Shown piece by piece: positions 11,650 through 58,199 of a DNA stretch of 64,000 nucleotides. A model generated the notes under the pieces. The model saw only the letters and a program-made list of their open reading frames with translations. It searched no databases and was not told the origin of the DNA. A program made the position numbers and the translations under genes. This stretch comes from a virus, in IMG/VR virus record IMGVR_UViG_3300045988_131126; one strand, 5' to 3'. The stretch's first letter is position 1. Every line of letters starts with the position of its first letter.

Positions 11650-11658
11650 CTATATATT

Positions 11659-11714
11659 AAATACAAGATTGTCTCATTGGTCCTGCTGCTGAAATGAAAC
11701 CATCTTGTATTTTT
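11659..11714 (+). terminator. intrinsic terminator-like interrupted hairpin after 10675..11649
   Basis: AAATACAAGAT (11659-11669) pairs with ATCTTGTATTT (11702-11712), with an inner TCATT/AATGA stem, then a T-run. Confidence 0.55.
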
Positions 11715-11715
11715 C

Positions 11716-11986
11716 ACTCGAAGCTGTTTTACTGGCTTGAATTCTGGTGTGGATGAACACCTCCTCCGAAAAATTGTAACGATGGTACTTGGTAGCCTCA
11801 TGCAACTCTGTCTTGCATGGGGTTGCTAAGTTGTTTTAAATAGTTATAACAATTTCATAATTAGACAGGGATGCCTAATTATGTATTTTGTATTTTTCAT
11901 AAAGTTTTTTCCTTTTTTTGTTTTTTTGAGTAGTTACGGAGAAATAATAGATAGTGAATATTCGCTATCTATTATTTTCTGTTTTT
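11716..11986 (+). ncRNA. candidate structured small RNA between two plus-strand terminators
   Basis: ORF-free, GC-richer segment. Stems: GGTGT..ACACC; CCTCATGCAA-7nt-TTGCATGGGG (11797-11823); TAATTAG-10nt-CTAATTA. Then a T-rich tract and a 16-17-bp hairpin 11940..11980 + TTTTT. Confidence 0.3.
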
Positions 11987-12170
11987 AAATAACAAGTATA
12001 ACATTAAATTAAATATAGAAGTTGCCACTCTATATTTACGTAAAGCCTTTCCATGTGTGGTTTATGAATGGTATTTATGTGTGCGTAATAGTTTTGTTTT
12101 TCCACCTAGACATACTTAATAGTATGTCTAGGCCCTCGCATCTATAAAAATAAAATATATTTTTGAATAA

Positions 12171-12210
12171 ATATCCTGTATGATCGAATTGATCATACAG
12201 GATATATTTT
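12171..12210 (+). terminator. perfect 15-bp hairpin + T-run
   Basis: ATATCCTGTATGATC-GAATT-GATCATACAGGATAT followed by ATTTT. Confidence 0.5.
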
Positions 12211-12403
12211 GTCAATAGTAAGGGGCTATTGACATAGATCAAGACCGGATAGGATAACTCCTATCCTGCGTTACAATAAAAATAAATAAGAAGGAGTTAT
12301 ACTTCGTAAAGAGAAAAACTAGCAGAATGTTACACGAAGGGATGTTTTAAAACTTTTTACTACTAGTCTTCTCTTTACTCAGATGTATAATATACTATCA
12401 TTT

Positions 12404-30834: not shown

Positions 30835-31998
30835 TTAAAATTCATCATCAATCTCTTTAGCTTTTTTATCCTCTGAAAGTTTATTAAAGAAATTAGCTTT
30901 ATCAATAACAGCTTTGTTCTTTTTCTGCGTTCCAATATCAAAGTTGCTATCATCATTGGCAAATGTCTTTTTCTGCATATTACCAAAGAATGTATCTTTA
31001 TCTTTATTTACCATTGCAGTCATTTTCTGATATTTATTATATACAGATTCTACTTCATCCATAGGCATTTTAGAGCCTGCAGAAATAAATGCAATGAATT
31101 GATCCATATCAGATTCATCCTGAATATGCTCAAATTTATCATAGCACTGACCAAATCTTTCAGTAAGAATATCATCATAATCAATATAATCTGTAGAGTC
31201 TTTCTTAATATTGATAATTACTGCCATTCTAGTCTGACTAGGTTCATCAACATCAAGAGTTTTAGAATTATCGATCATATCAATTACGATCTTTCTAAAC
31301 TGCTCTCTATTTTTAATCTTATCTTCAATTACAGCAGATTCAATAACCATATATCCATCTGTAGTAGAGATTTTAAGTAAATCTGTAGGGTCAATATTAT
31401 GATCAGAATCTCTTAACTGTAATCCGATAAGTACAGAAAGCTTTTTGCAGAAATCGATATCTGCTTTTTCTTCTGCTTTAATTCTATTATTATTGCATTC
31501 TGGAAGATATTTTTTAAGTTTAACTGCTTCTGTAGCGAAGTTATTCTGTAATTCTTGGAATATTTCTACAGTGTTCTTTGTTCCTCTTACATCTTCCTGG
31601 AATCCAATAAAGAGAAATACATGTACACTAATACCTAATACTTCTCTAATATATTTTGCAAGTAAAGGAGTAGAACCTGAACCGGTTCCACCTTCAGTAG
31701 AACTTACAAGAACTACTAATTCTGCTTGATCTTCTTTTCCAACACTCAAGAACTCTTCTAATGGAATTGTACCGTCCTGGATTGAATTAGCACATAAGTC
31801 GTAACTCATCTTTCTTTCCTTACCGCATCCGCCATAGCTATTGCTAAATTCGATAGCTGAGCCAGTGTAGTCTTTTGGAATATCTTTAAGAGTACTATTA
31901 ATCAGCATGGTATTTTCTACACTGATAATATCATTTCTAACTGCACAGATAGCAGCTTTGTTTCCTCCAGCACCAATTCCAATTAATTTTGTAATCAT
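30835..31998 (-). CDS. tubulin/FtsZ-superfamily GTPase (PhuZ/TubZ-like)
   Basis: GIGAGGNKA (T1 loop). STEGGTGSGSTP (tubulin signature GGGTGSG-like). Acidic C-terminal tail ..KEIDDEF. SD AAGGAGG. Confidence 0.8.
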   Translation of the reverse strand: MITKLIGIGAGGNKAAICAVRNDIISVENTMLINSTLKDIPKDYTGSAIEFSNSYGGCGKERKMSYDLCANSIQDGTIPLEEFLSVGKEDQAELVVLVSSTEGGTGSGSTPLLAKYIREVLGISVHVFLFIGFQEDVRGTKNTVEIFQELQNNFATEAVKLKKYLPECNNNRIKAEEKADIDFCKKLSVLIGLQLRDSDHNIDPTDLLKISTTDGYMVIESAVIEDKIKNREQFRKIVIDMIDNSKTLDVDEPSQTRMAVIINIKKDSTDYIDYDDILTERFGQCYDKFEHIQDESDMDQFIAFISAGSKMPMDEVESVYNKYQKMTAMVNKDKDTFFGNMQKKTFANDDSNFDIGTQKKNKAVIDKANFFNKLSEDKKAKEIDDEF

Positions 31999-32121
31999 TT
32001 TAAAAGTCCTCCTTATTTATGAATATGACGAATTGATTCATCATTATGGATATGTTTCCATATACTGTAAAATGTAATTTGATGATATATAATACTTATG
32101 AATAAAAGGAGGTGATATAAA

Positions 32122-32223
32122 ATGATTGAGATTATTAGTGTAGAAGACATTGAAGAAACTAAAGATAATAAGGAGGAAAAAGAATGTGAGAAAACCAAAA
32201 GACACTATCAAAATGGCAGATGA
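32122..32223 (+). CDS. possible 33-aa acidic small protein
   Basis: AAAGGAGGTG lies 9 nt before ATG 32122. It overlaps the next gene in another frame, so only one start model may be right. Confidence 0.35.
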   Translation: MIEIISVEDIEETKDNKEEKECEKTKRHYQNGR

Positions 32224-39780: not shown

Positions 39781-39878
39781 AAGATATTTCCGTCCTTTCT
39801 TCGAAGAATTATTAATATGATGTTCCGGCTAGGGCAAAAACAAGAGGTGTACATTAGTACACCTCTTATATAAGCATT

Positions 39879-45899: not shown

Positions 45900-46226
45900 A
45901 TGACTACAGATGATATTTTAAAACAAGTAACAGATGTGCTTGTACAGAATGTAGATATCAGCATTGTAATCATTTGCCTTGTTATTGGTGCTATTCTTAA
46001 GCATCTTGTAACAAAATTTAACAATGATTGGATCCCGATAGCTCTTATCGTATGCGGTATTATCGTATCGTTTGGTATTTCGGCATTGAAAGGATTTACA
46101 GATGATCCAATTCATATTGTTATTGTCGGAATTGCTAGCGCAGCTGCGGCTGTTGGTATTCATCAGAGTGGGAAAACTATTTACTTATATTCAAAGAATT
46201 CCGGCTCTGTCGATAAAAAAGAATAA
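45900..46226 (+). CDS. holin (Gram-positive phage phi LC3/LL-H-like)
   Basis: 108 aa with TM segments. ..NDWIPIALIVCG.. and ..AAAAVGIHQSGKTIY resemble that holin family (recalled). Charged C-terminus. Confidence 0.6.
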   Translation: MTTDDILKQVTDVLVQNVDISIVIICLVIGAILKHLVTKFNNDWIPIALIVCGIIVSFGISALKGFTDDPIHIVIVGIASAAAAVGIHQSGKTIYLYSKNSGSVDKKE

Positions 46227-46298: not shown

Positions 46299-46856
46299 AT
46301 GCCGATTGATTTAAACTTATTAGAGATTGAAGGAAAGAGACAAGAGTACAAAGACTATATCGAGGAACATAGAAAAAATGTAAAAACCGTATGGTTAAAC
46401 ATTTTAAAATGTCCAGAATTAAGAAATATGGTTAATGCTGGGATGTATGGTAATCAAACTGGTACTGTATTTGAGCATATTATTAATCAGAATATTGATA
46501 TGCACGATATGTCTAAATATAGTGAAGAAGAATTTGAGCCATATAGAAGACATTTCCATTCAGTTAATGAAAAAGAGAAAGAAGAAAGTACATTTGATTA
46601 TGGAATAGCTTGGCAGCATCATAAAGATAATAATAAACATCATTGGCAGTATTGGTCAGAAAGACATATAGTAAATGATATGCCTTGGCAATATGTAGTA
46701 GAGATGTTTTGCGATCATGCTGCTATGAGTATAAAATTCGGAGGGACTGCTTTAGAGTGGTTTAACGAACAATTAGCAAATAAAGAGATAAAAGTTGGAG
46801 AGATTCAGAAAACTTCTTACCTTAAATTGGCAAAATTATACTATGATAAATATTAA
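46299..46856 (+). CDS. hypothetical protein with HD-like motif (NIDMHDMSKYSEEEFEPY)
   Basis: 185-aa ORF, SD GGGAGG. His-rich. Family assignment not verifiable here. Confidence 0.3.
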   Translation: MPIDLNLLEIEGKRQEYKDYIEEHRKNVKTVWLNILKCPELRNMVNAGMYGNQTGTVFEHIINQNIDMHDMSKYSEEEFEPYRRHFHSVNEKEKEESTFDYGIAWQHHKDNNKHHWQYWSERHIVNDMPWQYVVEMFCDHAAMSIKFGGTALEWFNEQLANKEIKVGEIQKTSYLKLAKLYYDKY

Positions 46857-46873
46857 AACAATAATATATTATA

Positions 46874-46905
46874 AATGTGTAAGGATATGATAATCCTTAC
46901 ACATT
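46874..46905 (+). terminator. 13-bp hairpin after 46299..46856
   Basis: AATGTGTAAGGAT-ATGATA-ATCCTTACACATT followed by TT. Confidence 0.6.
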
Positions 46906-46965
46906 TTCATTAACTCAAAAACAAGTAGAAAGATCAGGAGGAAGGAAGAATGAATTACGGCGCTT

Positions 46966-47712
46966 AAAATATCATATTAGAGTAATAAAATCATTGTAAC
47001 TAAAATATCATATTAGAATAATAAAATTAAAGTAAATTAAATATCAAATTGGCCAAATAAAAATTAAATTAAGCAAAAAGAACATATGGGACATATAAAT
47101 CAAGATATTTAATACATATCAAATTAGAAAAATAAAATTAGAACCATCTAATTTATCATATGAAATAAATAAAATCAAATTGATGAACATATCGTGTATA
47201 ATAAATAATTCAGATTATTTAAAATATCATGTCATCAGAATAGATTCTAGTAAGGAGAAATATCAATATAAGCTAATGAAGTCAGTTTCATTAAATATCA
47301 TGGAAGAAAAATAAAATCATGATGGAGTAAGGATCATGTTATATCAATAAAATTATCTGTATTATATTATCATAAGCTAAAAATAAATCAAAATAGCAAT
47401 ATATCACAGCAAAAAATAAAATTATATCAAATGAAGTATCAAAAATGGACCAATAAAATCGTTATTTTAAAAATATCATATGGAGAAAATAAAATTATGA
47501 AGATAAAAATATCTTATCGAAAAAATAAAATCATAATATAAAAAGTATCATAGAATGAAAATAAAATTATATCAGATGAAACGTCATAATGTATCAATAA
47601 AATTATGAAAATAAAAAATATCATATACCGAAAATAAAATCACTTTATAAAAAATATCATGGCATTTTAATAAAATCATGGAAATTAAAATATCATATAC
47701 ACCAAATAAAAA
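46966..47712. repeat. array of ~21 phased 36-bp bipartite repeats (ATATCAT-N8-AATAAAATCA-N~11)
   Basis: Box 1 runs from 46969 to 47690 in 20 intervals averaging 36 bp. Box 2 lies ~15 bp after each box 1. No ORF >=60 aa on either strand. Hairpins on both sides. Confidence 0.9.
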
Positions 47713-47744
47713 TAAACCTAAGACTTTATCGTCTTAGGTTTATT
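47711..47744. terminator. bidirectional terminator; loop contains the stop codon of 47726..48556
   Basis: 14-bp stem AATAAACCTAAGAC/GTCTTAGGTTTATT flanked by A-run and T-run. Confidence 0.75.
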
Positions 47745-48556
47745 TTTTCTATTTCATTTGCATTTATATATCCTATCACAAAAGTCTGATCATTTAATGA
47801 AGATATTCTGTACTTATTATTTTTTATATTACTGGAGATTGTATACGTTCCAGAAATATTTCTGATTGGAATATTATCTGTGCTTTTCTCATATAAATTA
47901 GCACCTAATACATTTACTTTACTTCCGATATAAATATCTTTAATATTATTAACTTCTTTAATACCCTTAGATACTTTTCTAAGAGTGTCTTTTTCTCCAT
48001 ACACCTTATTACCTTTGCTATCAATAACCATAGTACCAGGATTCTTTTTTGATATATGTATAGCTTCATTTAAATCCATAGTTCTTAATAATGTGGAAGA
48101 ATTACTGAATCTTTTTACAAAGTATATTTCAAATTTTGAATTTCTATCTATATCTATCATATTCTTATTGAACGAGAATAATCTATAAATAAATTCTTTA
48201 TTTATTTCATTTAAATTGTAAGATAAAGCTATATTTAGTATATTTCCGATTGTAGCTTCATCTTCATTATATATCTTTTTCAATGTATTATACTCTGTGA
48301 ACAATTTATCAGAATATAATGTAAATATTGCAGATAGTTTTCTCATTGCATCAGCATACTCGAAATATGTATTTTCCTTCAGAAAAGTATTATATGGATT
48401 CTTATTTTCTATTATAAAGTATTCTCCATATTTCCGAAATTCGTGTATCGCTATAGCGATATATACTGACGGATATACATTAGTTTCTACTGCTACTTTG
48501 ATGGCATCTTCTTTAAGAAGATTTATTAAATCATTAATATTTTTTATTCTGTTCAT
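47726..48556 (-). CDS. endolysin-like protein (GH73 glucosaminidase-like N-terminus, SH3b-like C-terminus)
   Basis: ..YPSVYIAIAIHEFRKYGEY..NKNPYNTF resembles GH73 ..PSVxxAQAILESGWG..NNxFG. The C-terminal region is beta-rich and SH3-like. Adjacent to the holin. Start moved to ATG 48556. Confidence 0.45.
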   Translation of the reverse strand: MNRIKNINDLINLLKEDAIKVAVETNVYPSVYIAIAIHEFRKYGEYFIIENKNPYNTFLKENTYFEYADAMRKLSAIFTLYSDKLFTEYNTLKKIYNEDEATIGNILNIALSYNLNEINKEFIYRLFSFNKNMIDIDRNSKFEIYFVKRFSNSSTLLRTMDLNEAIHISKKNPGTMVIDSKGNKVYGEKDTLRKVSKGIKEVNNIKDIYIGSKVNVLGANLYEKSTDNIPIRNISGTYTISSNIKNNKYRISSLNDQTFVIGYINANEIEKINLRR

Positions 48557-48715
48557 GATGAACAACCCCCTAATTAGTATATATTTCCAATTACTAAAAT
48601 GTAACGTCTAAGATGGTAATATATTATAATAGAGATCAGATATAATAATTTACTATAATTTAACATTATTGTAAAGAACTGATTAATAAAAATAAATTTT
48701 AGGAGGATAAAGTAA

Positions 48716-52152: not shown

Positions 52153-52614
52153 ATGAATAAAAAACATAATGGATGGGTTTCTGAAACTAAATACTATCTT
52201 AACGATTTAATATTTATATATACAGATTTAAATACAAATAAGAAAATTCTGTTATTTCCTGGTAAATATGTAGCATTAATATACCCATTCGAGAAAATGT
52301 ACCCAAATATACCGTTTTCATGGTTTTATCCATTCGGAAGTCCTGTCGGATTTTACTGTGGTATTCAATATATGTTAACGTATAATTTACGCGATGATAT
52401 TTATTTTCATTATACAGTAGCGCAAATGCTAAATATCTATCGTCATATTTGTATTGCTAATGCAAATATTCCATATAGATATTTATCGTCAAAATTGGCA
52501 TCGCTGTTCGGAATAAACTCATACGATGTTATACAATGCAGAAGTTTATTCCGGCCATTTACAATTGGCCCAGATATAAATATGGAGATAAAAATAAAAG
52601 GAGGAGCTAAATAA
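52153..52614 (+). CDS. small hypothetical protein, family A (1/2)
   Basis: SD AAAGGAGA. Shares IYFHYTVAQMLNIY with LEYHFTIANMINLL of the next gene. Confidence 0.6.
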   Translation: MNKKHNGWVSETKYYLNDLIFIYTDLNTNKKILLFPGKYVALIYPFEKMYPNIPFSWFYPFGSPVGFYCGIQYMLTYNLRDDIYFHYTVAQMLNIYRHICIANANIPYRYLSSKLASLFGINSYDVIQCRSLFRPFTIGPDINMEIKIKGGAK

Positions 52615-53093
52615 TGAATAGATACAAAATAGAAACAAAGAAAGAATACTATTTATATGATCCAAAAATTACAAGTATAGTTTTTGATAAATTCAATAGA
52701 AATGCACCCTTTTTTATCGATACCGATCCTATTATAATTATAAATCATTATTTGGGTCGCGAAATATATATAGCCGGTAACTATAAAAAATGTTTTAGAG
52801 ATAAATTTTGTGATTCTAGATTATTTTATTTTAGATTGTCTATGTATTGTAGAAGGGTAAATACTTGTGATACATTTATCTTGTATAATAGATATTATCT
52901 AAGTGAGGATTTAGAATACCATTTTACTATAGCAAATATGATAAACTTACTACTGATATATTCAATAGACGAAATGTTTTATGATATGGTAAATTATATA
53001 TACGCTTTGTATTGTCCTTTATCTCCAGATTTGACAAGAGAAGTGCATTATAATTATAAAAATGAAAATCAAAGGAGGATTTATGATGTTTAA
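52614..53093 (+). CDS. small hypothetical protein, family A (2/2)
   Basis: The ATG shares one nt with the upstream TAA. SD AAAGGAGGAG. Confidence 0.6.
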   Translation: MNRYKIETKKEYYLYDPKITSIVFDKFNRNAPFFIDTDPIIIINHYLGREIYIAGNYKKCFRDKFCDSRLFYFRLSMYCRRVNTCDTFILYNRYYLSEDLEYHFTIANMINLLLIYSIDEMFYDMVNYIYALYCPLSPDLTREVHYNYKNENQRRIYDV

Positions 53094-53529
53094 ATTACCA
53101 TCACTTATTAAAAGAAAAAGACACTCAAATTTAGTAAAATTAATAGATATTCCTGCTCGTGATATCAACGATATGGATATTATGACGTATATCATATATC
53201 TTTGGGAATATAAAGATATGCATCATATTGGATATATTATTTCAAAAGCTAACGAAAGACATTGTGATAGATGGGTATTATACGCATATTCTGATAAAAG
53301 AATAACTGAATACTTTAGAGATAGATGCCCTGCTATCGTAGAAGAAGAAATTTTAAGTATTAGTAATAATAGAGATATAACAAACCATTTATCTAAAGCA
53401 GCTACAGGATTATATAACGGAGGTATTCCGATTGTTAAGCCAAAACAGTATTGGGGGGAAGATTGCTTACGCATAGATTGGGATAAAGACGTAAATTACG
53501 CTATTATAAATGACGTAATAAATATGTAA
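53083..53529 (+). CDS. small hypothetical protein
   Basis: AAAGGAGGA precedes ATG 53083/53086. The track start at 53062 precedes the SD. Confidence 0.55.
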   Translation: MMFKLPSLIKRKRHSNLVKLIDIPARDINDMDIMTYIIYLWEYKDMHHIGYIISKANERHCDRWVLYAYSDKRITEYFRDRCPAIVEEEILSISNNRDITNHLSKAATGLYNGGIPIVKPKQYWGEDCLRIDWDKDVNYAIINDVINM

Positions 53530-53557
53530 AGAAACAAATAAGAAGGAGATTATACTT

Positions 53558-54052
53558 ATGGCTATTATTAAAGAATATTATATACTTATTAATCGTAAAA
53601 AAGTTTTTGCACCGTGCAGAACAGAAAGAAATGAAACCATTTCATGGTTTCGATGCAATCAGGCGTATCTTCGAAAACAGTATGGAGATATTTCTAAAGC
53701 AGAATTAATAGAACGAGTAACAACGGTTGAGAGTAGTATTAATATGGATCTTAACCATGTAAAATATATGATAATATGCACTCGTCCAGATACTGACGAA
53801 CGTTATTACATAACCAAAACTAAAAGTGGTATGCCGATTGTAACTGAAAGTTTCGACGATATGGCCGAAGGTGATCTTTTATTTGAAAAAGAATTTTTAG
53901 CTAAAAACTATATCAAAAGACATGAGAAAACTTTAAGAGCTTTATTTAAAGAAGACGTAATAGAAACAATCAAAACTGAACCGGTATCAGAAGCTGTTGT
54001 TATTGCGTGTAGACAGAAGTTAAAAAATAGAAAGGTGGAAGATGTAATATGA
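53558..54052 (+). CDS. small hypothetical protein, family B (1/3)
   Basis: SD GAAGGAGA. Clear similarity to 54522..55010 (..ISWFRCNQ..YGDIS.. / ..ISFFQCNK..YGDLS..; ..CTRPDT.. / ..CTRPKS..). Confidence 0.65.
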   Translation: MAIIKEYYILINRKKVFAPCRTERNETISWFRCNQAYLRKQYGDISKAELIERVTTVESSINMDLNHVKYMIICTRPDTDERYYITKTKSGMPIVTESFDDMAEGDLLFEKEFLAKNYIKRHEKTLRALFKEDVIETIKTEPVSEAVVIACRQKLKNRKVEDVI

Positions 54053-54525
54053 TCGGAGTAGAAACGTTAAATACTAGATATTATTTCGAATTAAATGGAA
54101 AGAAACTTATGCATCGAGTTGCATACGATTTCGATTCAGAAAAGAAAGCGAGTGAATACTTTCTAAAAAATATACAAATGTATAGAAATTTATACGGAGA
54201 AAATGTAAATAATTTTATATTGGTAAGAGAAGAAATAATTGCCATGCGTAAAATGATCAGACGAATGGAACCCGTTAAATATATTATAGGAGTCGATACA
54301 GAAATCGGAGAGCTTTATGTAGGAATGACTACATTAAATGAAACCGAAGTTCCATATCTTTCTCCAATTAAATCAGATATATTAAATACTAACTATTTTA
54401 CTTCAAAAGAATTAGCAGAATCTGTAATAGACGAATATAAAATCGCATTGAAACCTTATTATAAAGAAACTATATTAAATAATCTGAAAGTAATAAAAGT
54501 CGAGGAGGAGGTATATAATATATGA
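54049..54525 (+). CDS. small hypothetical protein, family B (2/3, divergent)
   Basis: ATGA overlap with the upstream stop. Same length class and similar C-terminal ..KVIKVEE. Confidence 0.6.
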   Translation: MIGVETLNTRYYFELNGKKLMHRVAYDFDSEKKASEYFLKNIQMYRNLYGENVNNFILVREEIIAMRKMIRRMEPVKYIIGVDTEIGELYVGMTTLNETEVPYLSPIKSDILNTNYFTSKELAESVIDEYKIALKPYYKETILNNLKVIKVEEEVYNI

Positions 54526-55010
54526 CAAAAATTAATTATTATATTAGCATAAACGGGTATCAAATATCTTGTGGCTGTGGGGACGATAAGAATAAGGCTA
54601 TATCGTTTTTTCAATGTAATAAAGAACAACTTGAAGTCACATACGGAGATTTATCAGGGGCTACATTAGTAAAAGAAATTACAGAAGTACATACTAAAGT
54701 TGAGATGAGACTTGATGAAGTTAGATTTATTTTAACTTGTACTCGACCAAAATCTAGCGGATGGAACTATTATGTATCTAAAACATCAAGCGGATACCCG
54801 ATTATAGTTCTTGGCTATGACGATATGATAAAAGGTGGTCTTTCATTTTATAGCGAGGATTCTGCCAAGTTCTGGATTGAAAACCACAAAGATCAATTAG
54901 AAACTCTGTACAAAAAAGAAGTGATAGATACTATTAAAATAATACCAATATCTTTAGCTGAAATTGTTGCGGCTAAAGAACAAATAAATCAAAGGGAGGG
55001 TTCTAAATGA
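54522..55010 (+). CDS. small hypothetical protein, family B (3/3)
   Basis: ATGA overlap. SD GAGGAGGAGG. Confidence 0.65.
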   Translation: MTKINYYISINGYQISCGCGDDKNKAISFFQCNKEQLEVTYGDLSGATLVKEITEVHTKVEMRLDEVRFILTCTRPKSSGWNYYVSKTSSGYPIIVLGYDDMIKGGLSFYSEDSAKFWIENHKDQLETLYKKEVIDTIKIIPISLAEIVAAKEQINQREGSK

Positions 55011-55783
55011 CATTCGATGAATATATTAATAACCCCATGGGTATTAAATCTGCGGTCATCTCCAACAGAGAGATGTACCGTAAGATGTATACAGAAAAGT
55101 TTGATAAAGTAATGGTAAGAGAAGTTGGTAAAATGGATTATCAATTATCCAAATCAAATTCTAAATACTATTGCTATTTAAAGGTACCGTCAGAGACGGT
55201 ACCTAACTTCTATTACGATGTAGTAATAGAGTTCAGTGAGCCTAAAGATAAAAAGTTTGCTGATGCTTCTTTAAGAAATTATGATGTAAAATTCTTTTCC
55301 AATGATCCGGCATTTGTATTTACTTTCTGCTATGCATTTAGAAAGAATAAAATGTTTATTGATGATTATAAAGAAAAGATGTCTCCAGAAGCATTGGCTC
55401 AGAAACCAGTAGAGAAAAACCCTACTGTAAGTACGGGTTATGTAAAATCATTTTATTTTGCATATTTGATGATGAAAAAGAGAAATCTCTTTAGTAAAAT
55501 TCTTTATGTGAATAAATATAATAAAAGCAATATCTTAAAAGAGATTATGCCTGCAGATAAAAAGATCGAAGCAAGACAGAATGCTGCGGAGGATATGAAA
55601 AATAAAAAACGTATTGCTAAGAATATTGATGATGCTAAACGTAGACAGGCTATGGATAAAGACTTTGCTAAATATATAAAGAAACCATCTGTAGTTATGA
55701 ATACAATTAAAACTAATACAGTTAAGAATACCAGAAAAGTTAATTTTGGCATTAAAACTACTAAAAAGACTAAGAGGAAATAA
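55007..55783 (+). CDS. hypothetical protein with basic C-terminus
   Basis: ATGA overlap. SD AAGGGAGGG. 258 aa. Confidence 0.6.
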   Translation: MTFDEYINNPMGIKSAVISNREMYRKMYTEKFDKVMVREVGKMDYQLSKSNSKYYCYLKVPSETVPNFYYDVVIEFSEPKDKKFADASLRNYDVKFFSNDPAFVFTFCYAFRKNKMFIDDYKEKMSPEALAQKPVEKNPTVSTGYVKSFYFAYLMMKKRNLFSKILYVNKYNKSNILKEIMPADKKIEARQNAAEDMKNKKRIAKNIDDAKRRQAMDKDFAKYIKKPSVVMNTIKTNTVKNTRKVNFGIKTTKKTKRK

Positions 55784-55785
55784 CA

Positions 55786-56094
55786 ATGAGAAAACCAGGA
55801 TATTACACTGAAAAGTATATAATTAGATATAGAACTTTAAACAATGAAAGATTATATCTTTCCAAAGACGGAGAAATTATGGAAGAGCCTCAACTTGATA
55901 GGGTGGCTACTTATTTCGATACATTCGAGATAAATTATGGCGACATTATAAAATTTGGAGAAAAATATAATGAAGAATGTAGATCTGATCCTATAATTAG
56001 TTATGAGATAGCTAAAATGAAAATAGAAGTATATATGTATGGAACTCCAAATAGAGCATTTATATATTTTCCTAATAATAAGGAGGGAAAGTAA
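55786..56094 (+). CDS. small hypothetical protein, family C (1/2)
   Basis: SD AAGAGGAA. ..ISYEIAKMKIEVYMYG compares with ..CSYQIMEAKVELHGH of the next gene. Confidence 0.55.
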   Translation: MRKPGYYTEKYIIRYRTLNNERLYLSKDGEIMEEPQLDRVATYFDTFEINYGDIIKFGEKYNEECRSDPIISYEIAKMKIEVYMYGTPNRAFIYFPNNKEGK

Positions 56095-56384
56095 TGTATA
56101 ACCGTCTAAATGTAAATATCGGAGGTCGTGTATATTATATAAAACTCACATCTGTTTCAGGAAAAACTTATTATTATCATGGAGGATCATCTTTTTACCA
56201 GAGTTTAGACGAATACGTAAAATATTATGATTCATATTTTTCAATAGATCGCGATAAATTACAGTCAGATATCAATGAATTCAATAGAAACGTATATGAT
56301 AAAATCTGCTCTTATCAGATTATGGAAGCCAAAGTAGAATTGCATGGACACAGAGCAAATGGATCGCCTGTACGATGTATATAA
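56094..56384 (+). CDS. small hypothetical protein, family C (2/2)
   Basis: The ATG shares one nt with the upstream TAA. SD AAGGAGGG. Confidence 0.55.
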   Translation: MYNRLNVNIGGRVYYIKLTSVSGKTYYYHGGSSFYQSLDEYVKYYDSYFSIDRDKLQSDINEFNRNVYDKICSYQIMEAKVELHGHRANGSPVRCI

Positions 56385-56394
56385 GGAGAAACTA

Positions 56395-56853
56395 ATGGGT
56401 AAAACAAAAATAGTACTTTTAGGTACACAAAAAATATATAAAGACAAGAAAAAATCTTCAACAGTATCTGTAACTGTGTTAGGGATGTACAAAAGCTGTA
56501 ATGACAGATTAATAAATATTTTGTCTGATGTTGTAACTCGCATATTAGTAGACATACCAGGAGCAATAGAGAGGATGAATAATGATAAAGATGCATGGCG
56601 AAGTCTTTATAGAGATATAGCTGATCTGTTCGGTAACGATGATTCTTTAGGAACTTCTTCTGTACTTTTACCAGACGTAGGAGAATACGAAGAAATATTG
56701 TTTATTGGAACTGTGATACCTCTCGAAAATTGCTCAGATAATGACTTGAGATTCTGGCTAAATACTCCAGAATTGATTCCGGAATATGAGGAGCAACAAA
56801 ATAAATATAAACTCCCAGAAATAAAACCAAATAATACTCACTATACAAATTAA
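56395..56853 (+). CDS. small hypothetical protein
   Basis: Start moved to ATG 56395 (AAGGAGA 5 nt upstream). The track start at 56344 overlaps the previous gene. Confidence 0.55.
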   Translation: MGKTKIVLLGTQKIYKDKKKSSTVSVTVLGMYKSCNDRLINILSDVVTRILVDIPGAIERMNNDKDAWRSLYRDIADLFGNDDSLGTSSVLLPDVGEYEEILFIGTVIPLENCSDNDLRFWLNTPELIPEYEEQQNKYKLPEIKPNNTHYTN

Positions 56854-56879
56854 TAAATATAAAGGAGGATATGTTTATA

Positions 56880-57359
56880 ATGAGTAGAAAACGATATAAC
56901 AAACCCACCAATCCAGAAGTAGAAAAGGAGTATAAAGATATGGATTTAGTAAATGAAACAAATGAAGAAGAAGTAATTGAAGAGAAAGATACAGAAGCTT
57001 TTCTGAAAGATGTAGAGAAAGTTGCAGTAAACCCAGATAATAAACAGATTGATATTGAACTTACTGTAGATGCTTTTATTAGAAAAGAACCAGACAATAG
57101 CTCTAAGATTCTTTCTGTTAGTAAACTTCTTCCAGAAGATAAGAAATATGTACCAGAAGCCTTACCCGGATATGGATTAGCATATATCAAGAAAGGGACT
57201 ATTGTACGTTGTTATGAAATGGATAACGGATGGTATAGATTAGCTTCCGGATATATCTTCAATGCAAAAGTAAAAAGAGATTTGAACATAGACAGATTAA
57301 TAAATATATCTGGTTCTAATGGTTTATCTAGAATTGAAGATATAAAAAAGAATTTCTAA
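56880..57359 (+). CDS. hypothetical protein with SH3-like C-terminus
   Basis: AAAGGAGGA upstream. ATG 56880 has better spacing than 56871. ..GTIVRCYEMDNGWYRLASGYIF.. is SH3b-like. Confidence 0.45.
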   Translation: MSRKRYNKPTNPEVEKEYKDMDLVNETNEEEVIEEKDTEAFLKDVEKVAVNPDNKQIDIELTVDAFIRKEPDNSSKILSVSKLLPEDKKYVPEALPGYGLAYIKKGTIVRCYEMDNGWYRLASGYIFNAKVKRDLNIDRLINISGSNGLSRIEDIKKNF

Positions 57360-57749: not shown

Positions 57750-57876
57750 TGGTAACTACATAGGAAATAACTATAAAGTAAATCTATGATTTCATGGGTA
57801 AGTAATCATAGATTTATGGTAAATAGTGTATTCCTAGACATAAAATTTACCATTAATTTCTCTTTTCCTTATGTAT

Positions 57877-57915
57877 GGGATAGGTTAATATAACCTATCC
57901 CAGCATTTATTTTTT
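57877..57915 (+). terminator. intrinsic terminator of the 52-57.7 kb plus-strand run
   Basis: GGGATAGGTTA-ATA-TAACCTATCCC followed by AGCATTTATTTTTT. Confidence 0.7.
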
Positions 57916-57916
57916 A

Positions 57917-57959
57917 GTATCGTAGAAAAAATAAAGAGAGTTTAAACTCTCTTTATTTT
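57917..57959 (-). terminator. intrinsic terminator of the small basic-peptide gene
   Basis: 14-bp stem AAAATAAAGAGAGT/ACTCTCTTTATTTT (57928..57959), then TTTTCTACGATAC on the minus strand. The tail matches 1630..1651. Confidence 0.7.
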
Positions 57960-58055
57960 ATTAAAGGCATTACTAATGCCTTTAATATATGCTTTTAAAG
58001 CATATTTAATTCTCTTTAAAAATGTTGCATATGCTCTTAAAAATTTTTTCATCAT
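57942..58055 (-). CDS. 37-aa highly basic amphipathic peptide (below ORF-track cutoff)
   Basis: SD AGAAAGAGG lies 7 nt before the ATG. MMKKFLRAYATFLKRIKYALKAYIKGISNAFNKIKRV. The stop lies inside the terminator stem. Preceded by promoter/UTR module copy B. Confidence 0.45.
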   Translation of the reverse strand: MMKKFLRAYATFLKRIKYALKAYIKGISNAFNKIKRV

Positions 58056-58153
58056 AATATACCTCTTTCTACCTAGTTGATGAGACTAGGATTTATAGAT
58101 TATTTATTATATCACTATAATATTATATAATCAAAAAATAAAGATATTCCATA
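58056..58153 (-). promoter_or_regulatory. promoter/5'UTR module (copy B) of the 1159..1257 element
   Basis: The minus strand reads TATGGAATATCTTTATTTTTT-G-ATTATATAATATTATAGTGATA..AAATCCTAG..CTAGGTAGAAAGAGG. Confidence 0.5.
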
Positions 58154-58163
58154 TTAATAAAAT

Positions 58164-58193
58164 AGACCTATTAGAGATATCTCTAATAGGTCT
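58164..58193 (-). terminator. 30-nt perfect palindrome after 58200..58475
   Basis: AGACCTATTAGAGAT/ATCTCTAATAGGTCT. Confidence 0.6.
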
Positions 58194-58199
58194 TTCTTT

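Follow-up and report, generated by a model that had tools for sequence, protein, structure and literature searches.

A conserved array of bipartite 35-36-bp repeats behind a predicted early promoter in AR9-like gut jumbo phages: a candidate sponge RNA locus

Introduction

Bacterial sponge RNAs such as CsrB, RsmY and RsmZ, which act on CsrA, and CrcZ, which acts on Hfq/Crc, carry some 5-22 motifs each, often exposed in hairpin loops, and are encoded on the chromosome. At the level of DNA, direct repeats make up centromeres such as F sopC (12 x 43 bp), R1 parC and pBtoxis tubC (7 x 12 bp) and the replication iterons of P1, F and RK2. The tubC repeats are located directly upstream of the tubR-tubZ operon, and iterons adjoin the Rep gene or lie within it. 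A further arrangement is that of the type III antitoxins, in which a tandem array precedes a terminator, with a gene of the toxN family coming next on the same strand (PMC5086642). Here, we analyze a repeat array in 64,000 nucleotides of viral DNA (IMG/VR record IMGVR_UViG_3300045988_131126, GenBank third-party annotation (TPA) name Myoviridae sp. ctcyQ27); this whole stretch is referred to as the window in the following. The array is situated between a gene for a DUF5662 protein and a convergent gene for a putative endolysin. We give about an even chance to the possibility that it is transcribed into an early, A-rich and unstructured non-coding RNA (ncRNA) of approximately 0.85 kb that works as a multivalent sponge or decoy.

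An earlier note on this DNA had interpreted the array as a set of replication iterons or a sopC/tubC-type centromere, had connected it with a tubulin-family gene in the window and had mentioned a repeat-containing sponge RNA as an alternative. It is this last alternative that we find better supported, by way of a conserved early promoter motif with a 5' hairpin and not through the mini-ORF (open reading frame, ORF) cited in the note, which is lineage-specific.

Results

Architecture of the repeat array

Re-reading of the sequence confirmed the position of the array (Table 1), its 21 units, box-1 starts matching those listed before and the presence of a degenerate unit near 47080. Each unit follows the plan box 1 (WAAATATCAW), N8, box 2 (AATWAAATYA), N8. 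When the boxes are counted as 10-mers, both spacers comprise about 8 nt (range 7-9), and the unequal spacers of 8 and 11-13 nt described earlier did not hold up. Tandem Repeats Finder assigned a period of 36. Autocorrelation of positions 46906-47712, compared with 500 dinucleotide-preserving shuffles, yielded a sharp peak at lag 36 (identity 0.494 versus 0.369 +/- 0.015 in the shuffles, z=8.1) and another one at lag 72 (z=5.1), the maximum z across all shuffles and lags being 4.3. The 36-bp peak expected in the earlier note is therefore present, but the weaker 18-bp peak expected along with it is not (lag 18, z=-1.8). The ATC cores follow each other in alternating steps of about 19 and about 17 bp (lag 19, z=2.7) and do not bear out a half-period of about 18 bp. 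A scan of the 64-kb window with the combined box-1/box-2 pattern, allowing two mismatches, returned 11 matches compared with 0.5 in shuffles, and all 11 fall within the array.

Chain segmentation of this array and of those from the related lineages described below revealed 85-100% conservation of the TATCA core of box 1 and 90-100% conservation of AAAT in box 2. The Y of box 2 is C in 55-75% of the units and T in the others, and forms of box 2 that differ among the five lineages are AATAAAATCA and AAATAAATCA. TATCA occurs 174 times in forward and nine times in reversed orientation across the five arrays; the units are uniformly oriented, in the same direction as the promoter motif that precedes them. 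The DNA of the arrays is 74-78% A+T, and A alone accounts for 50% of the strand corresponding to the predicted transcript.

In agreement with the earlier description, the gap holding the array is flanked by two hairpins and lacks any ORF of at least 60 amino acids, the longest comprising 44 residues. It ranks among the largest non-coding features of the phage genome. Because the period is 35 in three of the related lineages, the array is not coding, and the drift in unit length as well as the stop codons (17-33 in each of the three forward frames, with all three stop codons represented in every frame) likewise led us to discard a coding repeat or an alternative genetic code. In clustered regularly interspaced short palindromic repeats (CRISPR), repeats measuring 23-50 nt are separated by unique spacers about 26-72 nt long, usually in the vicinity of cas genes. 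An array with boxes of about 10 nt, spacers of about 8 nt and a period of 35-36 does not belong here, and the Pfam hits available for the window include no Cas family.

Conservation among related phages

Four diverged lineages (lysin identity 52-61%) carry the array at the same syntenic spot, in the gene order GroEL, a gene for 260-267 amino acids, lysin, array, DUF5662 and holin. The gap measures 507 bp with about 12 units in L323, 869 bp with 21 units (748 bp of array) in the window, 1433 bp with about 38 units in L321, 2044 bp with about 55 units in L214 and 3353 bp with about 90 units in L212. The period is 36 in the lineage of the window and in L214, and 35 in L212, L321 and L323. Boxes, spacing and orientation are common to all five lineages, while the spacers are unrelated both between units and between lineages. 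On the larger scale, the five lineages retain the promoter motif, the upstream hairpin, the array and the hairpin that closes it, and the leader has diverged together with all of the spacers.

Ten strains of the same lineage as the window differ by insertions and deletions of whole units and by substitutions that are concentrated in the spacers, and an eleventh strain of the same phage presents yet another variant of the array. Variable sites among the ten strains amount to 18 of 420 in the boxes (4.3%) and to 53 of 331 in the spacers (16%; Fisher p=6e-8), a contrast that is partly inflated because non-orthologous units are aligned with each other after gain or loss of units. Some single 8-nt spacers are swapped almost wholly between strains with the adjoining boxes being identical (47552-47559, 47643-47650 and 47661-47665 in comparison with L204, L210 and L207); this could be due to unit-to-unit conversion or again to alignment of non-orthologous units.

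The strict two-box pattern produced single chance hits and no other arrays in IMG/VR and in one genome per GTDB species. Among the matches listed for metagenome contigs, it found single chance hits and one strain of the same phage, and among those listed for a loose version of the pattern in IMG/VR there were single chance hits only. Since the strict scans gave no other arrays, the array is clade-specific as far as pattern scans reach and, judged by sequence comparison, it is under selection. The first 100 kb of Bacillus phage AR9 are densely coding and show no comparable array gap. The boxes and their phase, on the retention of which the earlier note had made its interpretation depend, are held in all four diverged lineages, and its general description of a selected array with conserved boxes, free spacers and fixed spacing that is neither coding nor CRISPR has stood.

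Promoter motif, hairpins and terminator

Ahead of the array lies a predicted early promoter of the type used by virion RNA polymerase. Its octamer (46865-46872) starts ten bases past the stop codon of the DUF5662 gene, and the site fits the early promoter consensus of phage AR9, AAATATATATTAT-(6N)-G+1, which has been derived by differential RNA sequencing (PMC5312081). The motif TATATTAT-N6-G is present 11 times in the window and 9 of the 11 sites are intergenic, with intergenic DNA making up 10.3% of the bases; the octamer without the G occurs 38 times, six of them intergenic. A weight matrix derived from 17 early promoters annotated in AR9 gave positions 46857-46881 the third rank when both strands of the window were scored. 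Upstream of the arrays in the other lineages, the motif is kept with G at +1 in L212, L214 and L323 and with A in L321. Further sites of the early type are located, for example, at 48620(+), 60347(-), 42841(-), 30825(-), 28220(-), 24680(-) and 12394(-).

The hairpin that terminates the DUF5662 gene is kept in five lineages, with compensatory changes at 5 of 12 pairs in the five-lineage alignment, and the predicted +1 falls in its 5' arm. A transcript reading through from DUF5662 would form the full 10-bp stem with UUUUC directly after it, whereas one starting at G46879 could form a stem of 7 bp at most, three bases away from the U-run. As the predicted start lies inside the upstream terminator hairpin, the nascent array transcript would bear only a shortened version of it. 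It is thus conceivable that the same hairpin has a dual role and that its shortened form acts as a 5' stem-loop and not as an efficient terminator. The leader downstream of it contains a Shine-Dalgarno (SD) sequence and the five-codon mini-ORF pointed out in the earlier note. Both are real in this phage and in strains of the same lineage, in which the two changes inside the mini-ORF are synonymous, but both are absent from L212, L214, L321 and L323. A function as 5' stabiliser is speculation.

The strong terminator described earlier on the downstream side was recovered in a terminator scan. On the plus strand it ends the array, and on the minus strand the lysin gene that converges on it. Only the array, with no ORF, lies between the predicted promoter and the 17-bp stem of this terminator. 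In L321 and L323, the array is closed by a corresponding hairpin with a T-run behind it, and the arrays of L212 and L214, read up to this point, end in a hairpin. In AR9, transcription halts strongly at predicted intrinsic terminators (PMC5312081).

Regions upstream of genes in the window share, besides the early motif, a late one, AACA-(6N)-TA. It equals the late consensus of AR9, is seen in the form GRAACATYATATTAAT upstream of three genes in the window (sites at 39826(-), 42891(+) and 45846(-)) and is kept upstream of a gene for 321 amino acids in the four diverged relatives. The idea that box 1 serves as a decoy late promoter was abandoned: its likeness to GAAACATCATATTAAT in this lineage is incidental, as the relatives keep only AACA-N6-TA and box 1 reads AATA. 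An array of sigma-70 promoters was rejected as well, with 31 hits compared with 25.8 +/- 4.4 in shuffled sequence and a box spacing unlike that of -35 and -10 elements.

One of the other early-type sites (12394) stands at the start of a stretch of 754 bp without a called gene (11650-12403, minus strand) that features several strong inner hairpins. It matches no Rfam family at gathering score and may encode one or more structured ncRNAs.

Proposed function as a sponge RNA

We propose that the injected virion RNA polymerase would start at TATATTAT-N6-G with +1 at about 46879, cross the 21 units and halt at 47708-47747, giving rise to an RNA of about 0.85 kb (about 0.5-3.4 kb in the relatives). 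This RNA, 50% A and without stable structure, would present 42 single-stranded motif copies (up to about 180 in relatives), with (A)AAUAUCA and AAUWAAAUYA at a distance of about 18 nt. Early in infection, it could titrate a sequence-specific single-strand RNA-binding protein or a ribonuclease, either from the host or from the phage, and each 36-nt unit may accommodate either a single binder with two sites or two binders.

Several observations are in line with this proposal. The locus may be an independent transcription unit, with a promoter motif that is conserved and enriched, a terminator and no ORF. The boxes are present in 42 copies here and in up to about 180 copies in L212, are under purifying selection in comparison with the spacers and are separated by non-conserved spacers, as is typical for sponge RNAs. 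For 600-nt stretches of the plus strand from three lineages, we found no RNA structure beyond that of shuffles (z of minimum free energy (MFE) -1.1, -0.2 and +0.2), and complementarity from spacer to spacer, within a unit or between adjacent units, equals that of permuted controls. From the constant spacing, one would expect a binder that contacts each 36-nt unit at two sites. The unit varies from 34 to 39 and the period is 35 in some lineages and 36 in others, which a flexible single strand would tolerate more easily than a complex on helically phased DNA. The copy number, ranging from 12 to about 90, is as expected for a dosage-type element. The sequence data establish the anatomy of the array, selection on the boxes and their spacing, the lack of RNA structure, the promoter motif with its enrichment and conservation, and the terminator; firing of the promoter, RNA as the active form, and a sponge function with a partner of the kind named above are what we infer.

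Other observations weigh against a sponge RNA. Neither an RNA-binding protein nor a ribonuclease turned up among the ten proteins scanned or among the precomputed Pfam hits of the window. The spacers show little strand bias and are not depleted of words complementary to the boxes, so that nothing in the array itself is specific for RNA. A DNA-binding array would account just as well for boxes that are conserved, a spacing that is fixed and a copy number that varies. The promoter was called with the motif of AR9, the RNA polymerase beta of which is only 32% identical. A start within a terminator hairpin together with a short T-run could end many transcripts early, and the inflation of the box/spacer contrast by misaligned units also has to be taken into account.

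Alternative explanations

Binding sites in double-stranded DNA (dsDNA) for a phage or host protein are the main alternative, and one we regard as rather unlikely. The array could be a partition centromere, an iteron-type origin or a site for handcuffing, an organiser of packaging or of nucleoprotein, or a decoy titrating a DNA-binding factor, the promoter being incidental or serving to activate the sites. Conserved cores of 5-8 bp, free spacers, fixed spacing and copy-number change by whole units are classic traits of sopC, parC, tubC and iterons, and little strand bias in the spacers agrees with dsDNA. The genes on either side of the array converge on it and have a terminator each, and the minimum of the cumulative GC skew at 44-46 kb is close by, with gene directions diverging and most genes pointing away from that region. 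The phage also encodes a protein of the tubulin family. The proteins expected to act on such sites were, on the other hand, not encountered in the window. Rep-, ParA-, ParB-, ParR- and TubR-like genes are absent from the Pfam/PHROG hits on record for the window; Rep, ParA, ParB and TubR-like proteins were found neither among the ten proteins scanned nor among the precomputed Pfam hits of the called window genes, the same applies to Pfam/PHROG hits of a TubR-type winged-helix protein, and no Rep-like gene is present within 10 kb on either side of the array. A period of 35-36 bp corresponds to 3.3-3.4 helical turns and differs between lineages. The conserved predicted promoter of the early type reads into the array, and the approximately 215 units all point in the direction of transcription. 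Centromeres and origins are usually shielded from transcription. To our knowledge, 12-90 units, covering up to 3.3 kb, also go far beyond what is found in iteron sets or in the centromeres of plasmids. The interpretation favored in the earlier note, replication iterons or a sopC/tubC-type centromere, is accordingly disfavored by the lack of Rep, ParA, ParB and TubR among the hits for the window, by the non-integral helical period and by the promoter reading into the array.

The proposed link with the tubulin-family gene fares no better: the gene is 15 kb away, and the 150 bp upstream of it contain no repeats, no iterons and no TubR-like gene. Its product is distant from both FtsZ and TubZ. The only small ORF there, for 61 amino acids (32013-32198), shares sequence with the divergent gene and has not been called in contigs of relatives. 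A 36-bp footprint of the IHF/HU type was considered because the WATCA core resembles the IHF consensus WATCAANNNNTTR, and was rejected since TTR is not conserved and no HU/IHF homologue was detected in the window. AR9 itself possesses a protein of the IHF/HU family, gp102 (L325, 32205-32501), for which tblastn found no homologue in the window.

As a special case of an RNA-based function, the transcript could mimic a type III antitoxin (pseudo-ToxI) or act as a decoy for endoribonucleases of the ToxN/AbiQ/CptN kind with specificity for A-rich sites, which we consider improbable. Phages reportedly escape ToxIN through expanded pseudo-ToxI repeats. The tandem period of 36 nt is the same as in ToxI, and the order of promoter, repeats and terminator resembles toxI. 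Every box contains AAAU or AAAA, and type III toxins, which are common in Firmicutes, cut at AA/AU, A/AAAA or A/AAA (PMC5086642); about one AAAU per unit is, by our estimate, expected from composition alone. Unlike the pseudoknots of ToxI and CptI, the array has no conserved fold, as evident from random spacers, the absence of covariation and an MFE equal to that of shuffles. Pseudoknots like those of ToxI can in fact be excluded, because spacer complementarity matches permuted controls and MFE matches shuffles. The units are not nearly identical, and the terminator is followed by the convergent lysin gene instead of a toxN-like gene. A search of the window against Rfam gave no match at gathering score, and a permissive scan of 46800-47800 produced chance-level matches only.

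Similarly improbable, in our judgement, is an R-loop-type origin, in which the promoter is combined with the AT-rich array such that the early transcript, hybridised to the repeats, primes the leading strand. T4 oriF and oriG and the primary origin of T7 are origins of this type, and an unwinding element of about 50-100 bp suffices for those that are known. The predicted early promoter directly before DNA of 74-78% A+T, the purine-rich transcript and the neighboring GC-skew minimum with its switch in gene orientation would suit such an origin. Yet neither two boxes at fixed spacing repeated 12-90 times nor a sevenfold range in length are explained by it, and further skew and orientation switches exist elsewhere in the window.

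Least probable of all is a functionless satellite homogenised by replication slippage and unequal recombination: copy number does change by whole units between strains and lineages, but homogenisation would keep entire units alike, whereas conservation here is limited to two short boxes and to the lengths of otherwise random spacers, polymorphism is about fourfold lower in the boxes than in the spacers, the boxes persist across lineages with flanking lysins of 52-61% identity, and promoter motif, hairpin and terminator are conserved around the array. Hfq A-R-N motifs, CsrA GGA motifs, DnaA boxes and complementarity to the anticodon of isoleucine transfer RNA (tRNA) fit the conserved positions poorly.

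Genomic context

The features discussed here are compiled in Table 1.

Table 1. Positions of the array and of associated features in the 64,000-nt window.
Feature	Position	Strand	Remarks
Bipartite repeat array	46965-47712	+	21 direct units, head to tail, each 34-39 bp long (most often 36)
Predicted early (virion-RNA-polymerase-type) promoter, AATAATATATTAT-AAATGT-G	46860-46879	+	predicted +1 = G46879
Hairpin TGTGTAAGGA / TCCTTACACA, then TTTTC	46876-46903	+	DUF5662 gene terminator
Shine-Dalgarno sequence AGGAGG in the leader	46936-46941	+	lineage-specific
Mini-ORF MNYGA	46950-46967	+	lineage-specific
Bidirectional intrinsic terminator, 17-bp stem	47708-47747	both	U-runs on both sides, terminator scan
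Holin gene	45900-46226		lysis cluster
DUF5662 gene, 185 amino acids	46299-46856	+	upstream flank, lysis cluster; Pfam PF18907, E=7.7e-28
Putative endolysin gene, 279 amino acids	47726-48565	-	convergent flank; weak hits, motifs in alignment
Tubulin-family gene	30835-31998	-	best PDB E ~1e-4, weak PhuZ PHROG match

The DUF5662 gene is the syntenic neighbor of the array in all five lineages. A tie between the two was nevertheless rejected, as 80 other phage DUF5662 loci are without a comparable array. An identical DUF5662 protein is encoded in many assemblies from the human gut, on contigs measuring about 265-382 kb, and 251 blocks of public assemblies have an index entry for a flanking protein. 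The 279-residue protein encoded on the convergent side has 25 homologues, none of them with a Pfam domain. An alignment revealed an N-terminal glucosaminidase-like and a C-terminal SH3b-like motif, and weak hits were obtained to PDB entry 5t1q and to TseH. The protein is probably an endolysin, going by these likenesses, and was rejected as a binder of the array for being endolysin-like. The arm of the terminator at 47726-47747 encodes the last seven codons of the lysin-like protein (EKINLRR), the LRR/LRQ extension of which is restricted to this lineage and close relatives.

Further proteins encoded in the window include a GroEL-like chaperonin, an RNA polymerase beta-like protein, an NAD-dependent ligase and a family-B DNA polymerase in addition to the tubulin-family protein. 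By RNA polymerase beta, the closest cultured relatives are the Bacillus phages AR9, PBS1, Goe21 and Internexus (32% identity), followed by jumbo phages of Staphylococcus and Listeria. On account of these relationships, the virus can be assigned as an AR9/PBS1-like jumbo phage of about 275 kb with a Gram-positive host in the human gut. A search of GenBank phage DNA with positions 46300-48600 gave no match, and a scan for tRNA and transfer-messenger RNA found none.

Two other regions of the window deserve mention. Positions 52153-57359 hold a run of about ten small co-oriented genes for 96-169 amino acids with overlapping stop and start codons, in which paralogy is detectable in three genes only (53558, 54049 and 54522; 21-39% identity). 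The gap at 57750-58199 (minus strand) contains a terminator hairpin and TATATTAT motifs as well as an ORF for 37 amino acids, MMKKFLRAYATFLKRIKYALKAYIKGISNAFNKIKRV, with AGAAAGAGG before it and its own terminator after it.

Implications and comparison with known systems

The phage is common in the human gut. Tentatively, and with some doubt on our side, we picture a widespread gut jumbo phage in which up to 3.3 kb, more than 1% of the genome, might be given over to an unstructured RNA made early, with up to about 180 single-stranded copies of two short motifs sponging a host RNA-binding protein or a defence ribonuclease. If this holds true, it would be a case of titration in the style of CsrB or NORAD for host takeover or counter-defence, of which the literature searched contains no phage example; phages would then use titration at the RNA level through massive motif multivalency, and the range of 12-90 copies would constitute a natural dosage series. 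Should the array act as DNA, a jumbo phage would possess an element resembling a centromere or organiser but of unusual size. In this group, we know of no DNA sites that act in cis in replication, partition or packaging. A 2026 review of jumbo-phage biology covers ncRNA expression for phiKZ only and mentions neither tandem repeats nor sponges nor origins of replication. For annotation, it matters that the AR9-type early (TATATTAT-N6-G) and late (AACA-N6-TA) motifs hold in uncultured gut relatives, which renders their transcription units annotatable.

With sopC, parC, tubC and iterons, the array has in common direct repeats with conserved cores at regular spacing in non-coding DNA. Those elements are found next to par or rep genes, are much shorter and are usually phased with the helix, whereas the array has no such genes nearby, a period of 3.3-3.4 turns, a length of up to 3.3 kb and a promoter reading in. 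With ToxI and pseudo-ToxI it shares the 36-nt period, the succession of promoter, repeats and terminator, the A-rich sites and a phage precedent for repeat expansion. ToxI is made up of 2-5.5 near-identical repeats, each forming a pseudoknot, with toxN following on the same strand, in contrast to 12-90 units with random spacers, no fold and no toxin gene in the case described here. CDR1as, with its approximately 70 miR-7 sites, and NORAD, with its Pumilio elements, resemble the array in offering tens of short sites with free flanks for stoichiometric titration; they belong to another domain of life and bind other ligands, so that the parallel is one of analogy only.

Compared with CsrB and CrcZ, the array is phage-encoded, predicted to be early and unstructured, and alternates two motifs about 18 nt apart in up to about 180 copies; it contains neither GGA nor A-R-N motifs, and binding by a sponged partner is putative here. 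Still, although the array belongs to no sequence family, in its proposed function it most resembles the sponges of the CsrB/RsmZ/CrcZ type, since it combines the properties that characterize CsrB, RsmY, RsmZ and CrcZ: a dedicated non-coding transcript, in our case a predicted one, that ends at a terminator and carries many short motifs in variable copy number between non-conserved spacers.

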